A stretch of DNA of 3,402 nt from a virus (lineage: Duplodnaviria; Heunggongvirae; Uroviricota; Caudoviricetes). Where the stretch lies: the IMG/VR virus record IMGVR_UViG_2778261300_000007; one strand, written 5' to 3'. Both the position numbers and the translations under genes were made by a program. The notes under the pieces are model-generated. The model worked only from the letters and a program-made list of their open reading frames with translations, was not told where the DNA came from and searched no databases. Positions 2,329 through 3,402 of this stretch are shown piece by piece; the first letter of the stretch is position 1; every line of letters begins with the position of its first letter.

Positions 2329-2408
2329 TGAACAAGTCCCATGTCGGCAAGCATAAGCACACAGAATATGAAGCCCGCTGCCAGAAAAATGCATTCAGTG
2401 GTTGTCAT
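2325..2408 (-). CDS. Candidate 27-aa hydrophobic micro-protein (MTTTECIFLAAGFIFCVLMLADMGLVQ), not in the ORF track
   Basis: Reverse-complement translation of 2408..2325. The ATG (2408..2406) overlaps the TGA stop of the 74-aa ORF (2407..2405) as ATGA, and its TGA stop (2327..2325) overlaps the ATG of the 71-aa ORF as ATGA. It exactly fills the 77-nt gap and has a purine-rich stretch (GAGAGAGACCAGG) upstream. The hydrophobic core suggests a single short membrane helix. Confidence 0.3.
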   Translation of the reverse strand: MTTTECIFLAAGFIFCVLMLADMGLVQ

Positions 2409-2629
2409 ACCTGGTCTCTCTCATCTGCTTCTGCTTTCGCCACCATCATTTCCAGCTTTTGTGAAAGGGATGCGGCTAACGTATGAAATTCTTCGTCTGT
2501 TTCTACTGGTAGACCTCTAAATCGTGCACAGGCTCTGGCGAAGATCGCAGAAATCAAAGCTAAGTTTGGGCTGAAAGGAGCAAGTGTATGACGGGCAAAG
2601 AGGCAATTATTTATTACCTGGGGACGCAT
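2405..2629 (-). CDS. Doubtful 74-aa ORF (hypothetical); may instead be non-coding divergent control region
   Basis: ORF present in the track, but there is no SD upstream of the ATG at 2629 and the first 14 codons are antisense to the well-supported plus-strand Cro-like ORF. The only in-frame alternative start (TTG) also lacks an SD. The C-terminal part is protein-like and its stop is ATGA-coupled to the micro-ORF, so it is not excluded. Confidence 0.2.
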   Translation of the reverse strand: MRPQVINNCLFARHTLAPFSPNLALISAIFARACARFRGLPVETDEEFHTLAASLSQKLEMMVAKAEADERDQV

Positions 2630-2761
2630 AAGAGTTTCTGTGCGCAGGACGTTGCTGCGGCAACAGGTGTGACAGTAACCTGCATAAATCAGGCAGCAGC
2701 TAAAATGGCGCGTGCAGGAATCCTGGTCATTGATGGTAAGGTCTGGCGAACGTTTGTTTAA
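2588..2761 (+). CDS. Small Cro-like helix-turn-helix DNA-binding protein (57 aa), not in the ORF track
   Basis: ATG at 2588 preceded by a strong SD (AAGGAG at 2575..2580, 7-nt spacer); stop TAA at 2759..2761. The translation MTGKEAIIYYLGTHKSFCAQDVAAATGVTVTCINQAAAKMARAGILVIDGKVWRTFV has HTH plus beta-hairpin spacing like lambda Cro ([30 protein letters not shown] as recalled, versus ATGVTVTCINQAAAKMARAGILVIDGKVW). It is divergent from the leftward small-gene operon. Confidence 0.5.
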   Translation: MTGKEAIIYYLGTHKSFCAQDVAAATGVTVTCINQAAAKMARAGILVIDGKVWRTFV

Positions 2762-2907
2762 CGGTTAGCTACTCAGGATGATAGGGCGCGGCAAGTGAGT
2801 ATGAAGCGGATTTTCAGGAATGCCATCAGAGTTTGGAAATAAAGTGGGTTTTCTAGTGGCAAGAGACTTGATAATATTTAGTTCTTTGAAGCCAAGGAGA
2901 TAGGGTT

Positions 2908-3402
2908 ATGAGAAAATTTATTTTAGCCTTTGTCATAAGTGCCTCGTTTACAGCAAATGCTGGTGTAGAGAAGTTAGGGCCGTGGATAACAAAGTCTGAG
3001 ATAAATAAAATGACTGACCAGACTGACTTTGTGGCTCTTAATTTATCACCAGATTCATATAACAAAGCAGGTACTGATCGTGCAACTTCACTGGTGTTGC
3101 GTTGTAGTGATAACAAAACAGATGCCTATTTATCATTCAATGATTATATGGGTTCGGACAACCCAAGAATTACAGTGCGGTTAGATGGCGGAAAGCCGGT
3201 CAAGAGTGTTTGGGGTGGTGGGGAAGGCGGCGATTCTGCATTTGCTCCACAACCAATACAATTTATAAAGACCTTGGCTAAGCATAAAAAAGCTATTTTT
3301 GGGTTTGAACCTTATGGATCAACTATGCAAGTAGTTGAGTTTGACTTGTCTGAGATTGATAAGGTTGTGGAAAAAATTTCACAGTCTTGCAATTGGAAAT
3401 GA
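2908..3402 (+). CDS. Exported (periplasmic/secreted) protein of unknown function with N-terminal signal peptide (164 aa)
   Basis: Strong SD (AAGGAG at 2895..2900, 7-nt spacer) before the ATG at 2908; stop TGA at 3400..3402. The N-terminus MRKFILAFVISASFTANA-G has a basic n-region, hydrophobic core and A-x-A signal-peptidase I site. The mature part has exactly two Cys (possible disulfide) and a Gly-rich loop (VWGGGEGGD). No catalytic motif recognised. Confidence 0.75.
   Translation: MRKFILAFVISASFTANAGVEKLGPWITKSEINKMTDQTDFVALNLSPDSYNKAGTDRATSLVLRCSDNKTDAYLSFNDYMGSDNPRITVRLDGGKPVKSVWGGGEGGDSAFAPQPIQFIKTLAKHKKAIFGFEPYGSTMQVVEFDLSEIDKVVEKISQSCNWK

Follow-up and report, generated by a model that had tools for sequence, protein, structure and literature searches.

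A mobile prophage gene for a predicted exported VasI-like protein, with a possible role in superinfection exclusion

The last gene of the prophage fragment analysed here (a stretch of 3,402 nucleotides, referred to below as the window) encodes a predicted periplasmic protein that belongs to the VasI domain family, in a shortened branch specific to phages. The gene is carried as a moron, an independent unit found at different places in different phages. This identity, together with the moron status, is very probably correct. The function is more tentative. The whole explanation preferred here, in which the protein protects the lysogen from superinfecting phages, is given a rough probability of 0.35.

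Some of this was already known, namely the family, the PHROG, the RefSeq name and the occurrence of VasI-family proteins as phage cargo; a prophage of Citrobacter rodentium is a recorded example (PMC6456863). Three points are new: the RefSeq label "TagO" is not earned by this protein, the gene is a moron that moves between slots and has a conserved promoter-like element and a terminator, and a connection to an anti-phage fold, reported not long ago, can be put to the test. The features on which the analysis rests are collected in Table 1.

Table 1. Features of the VasI-like gene and the DNA in front of it, in window positions.
Feature	Position	Strand	Basis or remark
Deletion junction (GGTA microhomology 2508-2511) and last ~80 bases of replication gene P	2508..2591	+	homology breakpoints, all related loci
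ren pseudogene	2588..2841	+	57-aa ORF 2588-2761, then frameshifted remainder; PHROG 142 Ren-like, E 1.2e-19
Weak -35, TTTTCT	2849-2854	+	accompanies the candidate extended -10
Candidate extended -10, TGaTAATAT	2869..2877	+	12-sequence upstream alignment
Shine-Dalgarno sequence, AAGGAG	2894-2899	+	8 nt 5' of the ATG, read from the sequence
VasI-like ORF	2908..3402	+	ATG start, 164 aa, TGA at 3400-3402
Sec-type (signal peptidase I) signal peptide, residues 1-18	2908..2961	+	inspection and pattern conservation
Predicted mature periplasmic domain, 146 aa, ~16.1 kDa, pI 5.9	2962..3399	+	modelled beta-sandwich with two helices, IalB/VasI-like fold
Stretch matching Pfam VasI (PF11319), residues 56-163	3073..3396	+	26.7 bits
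Cys66 codon, first of the invariant Cys pair (putative disulfide)	3103..3105	+	invariant in alignment
Gly-rich loop, W102-GGGEGGD-109	3211..3234	+	W102 and E106 invariant; G107/G108 nearly so
Cys161 codon, second Cys, in the C-terminal C-x-W motif	3388..3390	+	invariant in alignment

The original prediction, made from the letters of the window, described an exported protein with its own strong ribosome-binding site, and a good Shine-Dalgarno sequence does stand at the right distance before the start codon. When the upstream regions of related genes are compared, a purine-rich block (GGGGATAGGG or AGGAGATAGGG) is kept 5' of the ATG across differing phage contexts. Pairwise comparison of the reading frame with homologues of 55-81% identity gives dN/dS ratios of 0.07-0.16, which indicates purifying selection. 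A public assembly collection has this exact protein indexed in 10,040 blocks. The protein is carried by 84 of 5426 complete E. coli genomes and is also encoded by a plaque-forming carrier, Escherichia phage IdasGreatGrand. Carriers include E. coli from humans, pigs, cattle and poultry, isolates from soil, sludge and frog, and a phage from swamp mud. Given the selection on the frame, the conservation among homologues and the 10,040 indexed blocks, this is a real, selected and common gene. An 87-aa open reading frame that overlaps it on the minus strand (2853..3116) was set aside as spurious because conservation under purifying selection belongs to the plus-strand frame.

The N-terminal 18 residues (MRKFILAFVISASFTANA, followed by GVEK) have the layout of a signal peptide cleaved by signal peptidase I. 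By inspection they comprise a basic n-region, a hydrophobic core of 12-13 residues and A-x-A at positions -3/-1, with no lipobox cysteine; cleavage is predicted between ANA and GV. The same three-part pattern, with small residues at -3/-1, can be found in 24 of 24 aligned sequences (the window protein and 23 homologues), while the residues themselves drift freely. In the structural model described below, residues 1-17 have pLDDT values below 50. The "textbook" Sec signal peptide of the original prediction is thus present, and its pattern is kept by the aligned homologues. The product is predicted to be exported by Sec to the periplasm as a soluble protein of about 16 kDa.

A lipoprotein reading of the window protein was considered and rejected because its signal peptide has no cysteine. 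Several homologues (P0007, P0008, P0013, P0015 and P0016) do carry a cysteine in the hydrophobic region, at residues 11-14, in settings that resemble a loose lipobox (LFSC, FLSC, LLGC). For this reason a subset of the VasI-like phage proteins might be lipid-anchored.

The mature domain was studied with an alignment of the 24 sequences, in which the homologues are 54-81% identical to the window protein. Two mature-domain cysteines and a Gly-rich loop had been pointed out at the start, and both are present. C66 and C161 are invariant across the 24 sequences, and the loop is largely conserved, in a block where model confidence is low. The two cysteines align with both cysteines of VasI from E. 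coli EDL933's type VI secretion system (T6SS), the C161 region falling on its C-H-W. They probably form a disulfide made by DsbA.

Structure prediction and a fold search had been proposed as a check on the original prediction. The AlphaFold2 model built from the 24-sequence alignment (pLDDT 77.8, pTM 0.74) is a beta-sandwich consisting of seven strands, a helix, two further strands and a C-terminal helix. Its top match in the PDB is 3dtd, the invasion-associated locus B protein IalB, at 9% identity. IalB differs in being encoded by an alphaproteobacterial chromosomal gene, and the window protein has no Pfam match to its family (PF06776) at E<=0.1. A sequence search of the PDB found no relative of the window protein. 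A Foldseek search of the model against viral models (BFVD) returned uncharacterised phage proteins only. Among these fold relatives are D9IC73 of phage RB16, D5JF58 of phage KP15 and V9LYR6 of Vibrio phage VH7D, all from T4-like phages. Because those phages are virulent, lysogenic conversion cannot be the role of the proteins there.

The original prediction recognised no family, and in this it did not hold. The protein passes the Pfam VasI model (PF11319, formerly DUF3121) marginally, with 26.7 bits against a gathering cut-off of 26.5, and most close homologues have a precomputed PF11319 match. It also matches PHROG 1848, whose function is not assigned in PHROG, from end to end (E 2.7e-70), and RefSeq names the identical protein "T6SS-associated protein TagO". 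The family is large: when a profile built from its close members is searched, 3825 of 1.8 billion cluster representatives match at E<=1e-3, and in most of them the domain forms the C-terminal part of a protein of about 200 residues.

Membership in the VasI domain family is not the same as being the T6SS protein. The window protein reaches 14.4 bits with TIGR03360, NCBIfam's equivalog model for VasI, well below the cut-off of 124.2, whereas in the same test the VasI of EDL933 T6SS-2, encoded between tssH and tssA, scores 257.4 bits. The two proteins share 18% identity. Phage homologues from P2-like and Brucella phages are intermediate, at 76 and 47.5 bits. Likenesses to the VasI/TagO group (PF11319, TIGR03360; VCA0118 and the vasI product of E. 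coli T6SS-2) include the Pfam domain, export (predicted for the window protein), both cysteines, and a beta-rich domain that ends in a helix with the C-x-W motif. T6SS VasI proteins are 227-247 residues long, however, whereas the window protein has 164 and is without the N-terminal 60-80 or so. The T6SS gene lies between tssH/vasH and tssA, whereas the window gene is a stand-alone prophage unit: in more than 90 loci examined there was no tss gene within 6 kb, and the context was always a prophage.

Because of the sub-threshold equivalog score, the low identity and the intermediate phage homologues, the window protein is classified as a divergent, shortened, phage-specific branch of the family. 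The name "TagO" overstates the relationship, and the protein is not an orthologue of the T6SS component.

The surroundings of the gene in the window are not those in which it normally occurs. Positions 1-2511 are homologous to E. coli prophages and hold genes for an integrase, an excisionase, a DUF4222 protein, a TraR/DksA zinc finger protein, a PHROG 303 protein and a DUF1382 protein. Positions 2508-3402 match E. coli prophages separately, and in intact prophages, such as locus L002, the two arms lie 6.6 kb apart. Homology on the integrase side stops at 2511, inside a DUF1382 gene truncated at its 5' end; homology to P, ren and the VasI-like gene begins at 2508. Since the arms are so far apart in intact prophages, the window is read as a prophage from which about 6.6 kb has been deleted, with the loss of exo, bet, gam, kil, the immunity region, O and most of P. 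A 74-aa open reading frame spans the junction on the minus strand (2405..2629), and its N-terminal 29 residues are antisense P sequence. The window itself is bounded by two stop codons, that of the integrase on the minus strand (1-3) and that of the VasI-like gene (3400-3402).

The exact junction was absent from 5426 complete E. coli genomes, the GTDB species representatives and IMG/VR, and none of the 5426 complete genomes covers 80% or more of the window. Other deletion derivatives are known (L017, L011 and L021).

The right arm in intact prophages consists of the end of replication gene P, a frameshifted ren and then the VasI-like gene. The original prediction placed the gene next to the regulatory and integration module. 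The adjacency to int and xis in the window is real, but it was created by the deletion, which joins position ~2511 to the end of P; the native slot opens the nin region, following O-P-ren. RefSeq annotates the same ren DNA as "protein ren; frameshifted; internal stop". The lesion is common to all E. coli loci with the VasI-like gene, so frameshift and moron seem to travel together.

What follows the gene varies. Some prophages have a two-gene cassette just downstream (L002 9088-9884; L011 6960-7756), coding for a HEPN-domain protein (PHROG 5737) and a 133-aa partner, and others have different small genes at the same position. The interval between ren and nin therefore looks like a variable cargo hotspot, possibly one that holds defence or toxin-antitoxin genes.

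An instructive comparison can be found in the cryptic prophage DLP12 of E. coli K-12. The slot after ren is the one that emrE occupies there, in the order intD-xisD-exoD'-peaD'-renD-emrE-ybcK. In both cases the cargo lies right after ren and before ybcN-ninE-ybcO-rusA-ylcG-quuD-nmpC-essD-rrrD (genes found downstream in L002), and DLP12 too is deleted between the integrase side and the end of P. They differ in their cargo, which is an exported VasI-like protein in the window and a multidrug transporter in DLP12, and in their integrase, which in the window is of the lambda type with an Arm-binding domain rather than IntD.

Evidence for the gene being a moron is provided by its own signals, its composition and its distribution. 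The 100 nt 5' of the gene were aligned from 12 phage contexts with unrelated backbones. T2872, A2873 and T2877 are invariant in the 12 regions. The TG one base before the hexamer, with G2870, is nearly invariant and makes the element an extended -10. The -10 hexamer of the window is TAATAT (2872-2877), and TGnTAGGAT stands at the same place in other phages. A generic promoter and terminator scan of 2400-3402 called no upstream promoter, the candidate -10 included, and no terminator. The stop codon is directly followed, in nearly all related contexts examined, by a GC-rich hairpin and a run of T (in the lambdoid prophage L002 its energy is -12.2 kcal/mol, z -2.3); this position is beyond the end of the window. 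Because the window ends at the stop codon, the terminator of its own copy has been cut off. Across five contexts the gene has 39-45% GC against 44-56% in the flanks, a drop of 5-14 points.

The distribution is patchy and wide. The gene was found in 84 E. coli genomes as against 3854 that share the left arm. Its carriers are temperate phages of Enterobacterales, and at least three or four distinct insertion slots are occupied, the distant homologues in them being 55-81% identical. It comes after O-P-ren in lambdoid phages of E. coli, whose immunity regions are of several different kinds. In siphophages of the Klebsiella, Enterobacter, Serratia and Pantoea types the tape-measure gene follows it immediately. 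Brucella phage BiPBO1 has it directly downstream of the repressor gene, on the same strand. Finally, P2-like prophages have a longer version at their end, beside a zinc-ribbon gene. One such version (L004 4235-5465) has 297 residues with a long N-terminal extension; it follows the zinc-ribbon gene and is near a hok-like (MokW) gene.

Neighbours in the tape-measure slot are genes for Ant (antirepressor), Arc-like and KilA-N proteins and for small lipoproteins. Two of these contexts (L056 6591-6977; L084 5521-5901) have small lipoprotein genes with the lipobox LAGC, and one such lipoprotein weakly matches the Cor superinfection-exclusion family (PHROG 1119, E 6e-5), which points to a cluster of envelope morons. 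A near-identical hairpin, AACCCGCTTAACTGCGGGTTTT, can also be found some 60-100 nt 5' of the gene in six otherwise different phages (L003, L047, L056, L067, L080 and L084). It probably terminates the unit in front, but could instead be a recombination linker that aids movement of the cassette.

Thus the moron proposed at the outset stands: a conserved -10-like element, a terminator in the relatives, deviant GC and mobility between slots all argue for it. In the window the reading frame is intact and 100% identical to that of the plaque-forming phage, within a prophage lacking immunity, replication and recombination genes.

On function, a comparison with a known anti-phage protein is useful. 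SDIC4B, from Serratia Defence Island Candidate 4, is exported, is described as having a "VasI-like fold" and alone lowers the plating of several phages ~10-200-fold (bioRxiv 10.1101/2024.01.28.577318); SDIC4 is now a DefenseFinder subtype (PMC13639185). Its sequence was taken from the plasmid table in the supplement of the preprint and belongs to Pfam PF27224. Like the window protein, SDIC4B has a signal peptide and a single beta-rich domain of ~135-145 residues with one early and one C-terminal cysteine. AlphaFold2 models of the two show the same order of secondary-structure elements (pLDDT 80 for the SDIC4B family model) and share 3dtd as the top PDB match. Neither gene belongs to a T6SS cluster; both lie in Enterobacterales DNA that is mobile or variable.

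A sequence link between the two was sought with deep profiles in both directions and rejected, with hhalign probabilities of 0.4-1.2% and HMMER E values of at least 0.06. The link therefore is one of predicted fold and of architecture only, an argument by analogy. SDIC4B belongs to LptG-YjiA defence islands of the chromosome, which also carry SDIC4A and often BrxR; the window gene, in contrast, is solitary and phage-borne, and neither SDIC4A nor BrxR was seen as a neighbour among the loci examined. Anti-phage activity is known for SDIC4B only, and its own mechanism is not established.

By analogy, exclusion of superinfecting phages at the level of the envelope is the best inference on function, at the probability given at the beginning. 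The gene would be transcribed from its own promoter in a repressed (here defective) prophage. Its product would be exported by Sec, oxidised to a single disulfide, and act as a stoichiometric periplasmic binding protein rather than an enzyme. It would hinder superinfecting phages after adsorption. The target might be the step at which tail tip, tape measure or DNA conduit crosses the periplasm, or a periplasmic host factor needed for that step. The exclusion proteins gp15 of HK97 and Ltp of phage TP-J34 work in this way, and the plating phenotype reported for SDIC4B, likewise a single exported protein, would be in keeping with it.

HK97 gp15, the archetypal exclusion moron, is located in the chaperone/tape-measure slot (PMC3594210), the same slot as many of the VasI-like homologues. 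With gp15, Cor, Llp and SieA the window gene shares the organisation of a moron, and the products of all of these act at the envelope, as the window protein is predicted to do. The proteins themselves differ. gp15 is a small YebO-like protein of the inner membrane, and Cor and Llp are lipoproteins, whereas the window protein is a predicted soluble periplasmic beta-sandwich related to none of them in sequence or fold; an exclusion phenotype is known for those proteins only. The PADLOC defence models gave no match to the window protein. Two further points count against exclusion. The fold relatives in virulent T4-like phages are found where protection of a lysogen would not apply. VCA0118 of V. 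cholerae, the sole experimentally studied true member of the family, has a phenotype related to T6SS and not to phages (PMC3166118).

That phenotype is the starting point for another explanation, in which the protein is an accessory or modulator of T6SS. An extra VasI/TagO could boost killing by the lysogen's T6SS, or the protein could be a periplasmic decoy or shield against an incoming one. VCA0118 is exported, is dispensable for secretion of Hcp and VgrG, and yet is needed for killing of amoebae and for part of the killing of E. coli (PMC3166118), so an auxiliary periplasmic role does exist in the VasI family. The shared Pfam domain, the cysteine pair and C-terminal C-x-W in common with E. 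coli T6SS-2 VasI, the presence of T6SS-2 with vasI in many E. coli strains and the intermediate equivalog scores of the P2-like and Brucella phage homologues fit such a role. The window protein itself, however, falls far short of the equivalog cut-off (14.4 against 257 bits for genuine E. coli VasI), shares 18% identity with that protein and lacks its N-terminal part, and no tss gene is nearby at any of the more than 90 loci. The function of TagO is moreover still given as unknown in a 2026 review (PMC13584744). On balance a T6SS role is unlikely. VCA0118 has also been discussed as a possible adhesin (PMC3166118), and this would suit an IalB-like factor for host interaction or virulence, which would alter the envelope of the lysogen for adhesion, invasion or survival in an animal host and have nothing to do with phages or T6SS. 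Lom and Bor of lambda are precedents for host-interaction factors encoded by morons (PMC3594210), Bor being present in L092, and E. coli from humans, pigs, cattle and poultry are among the carriers. So too, however, are the soil, sludge and frog isolates and the swamp-mud phage. The resemblance to IalB, at 9% identity and with no Pfam match, leads to a protein whose own mechanism is undefined, and the window protein is predicted to be soluble and periplasmic, without an anchor at the outer surface. This explanation is quite improbable.

The virulent fold relatives in RB16, KP15 and VH7D, which weigh against exclusion, would be at home in an explanation where the protein helps the lytic cycle. 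Expressed by read-through from pR or a late promoter, it could affect the timing of lysis, protect progeny from adsorbing to debris or remodel the envelope. Both main contexts do lie in lytic operons that depend on antitermination (the nin region after P-ren and the tail operon before the tape measure). The conserved promoter-like element and terminator argue instead for independent expression; most relatives manage without the gene, as the count of 84 carriers against 3854 genomes with the same left arm indicates; and the gene has stayed whole in a prophage whose deletion has put an end to lytic growth. A lytic role is about as improbable as the IalB-like one. The probability that remains beyond exclusion and these three alternatives belongs to a function not yet imagined.

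Exclusion, if it is the function, may extend beyond this one gene. The phage-borne VasI-like proteins would then form a large, unrecognised class of single-gene periplasmic superinfection-exclusion factors. One ancient envelope-binding fold would have been put to use in T6SS firing by VasI, in SDIC4B islands and in prophage morons, acting in each case on penetration of the periplasm that is contractile or driven by a tape measure. This wider proposal is doubtful, being considerably less probable than exclusion by the window protein itself.

The exact protein is widespread, with entries in thousands of indexed assemblies, and databases call it "hypothetical" or, misleadingly, a type VI secretion component. 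Establishing its role would correct the TagO annotation, and PHROG 1848 and many VasI-like cargo genes of phages would gain a function. Should it prove inert against phages, it would be an ordinary uncharacterised moron. If exclusion is its function, a soluble periplasmic protein would join a field dominated by membrane proteins and lipoproteins, and the result could illuminate what VasI/TagO does in T6SS. Were the shared-fold class also real, it would open a shared mechanistic route to understanding how the periplasm is crossed by phage tails and by T6SS spikes.
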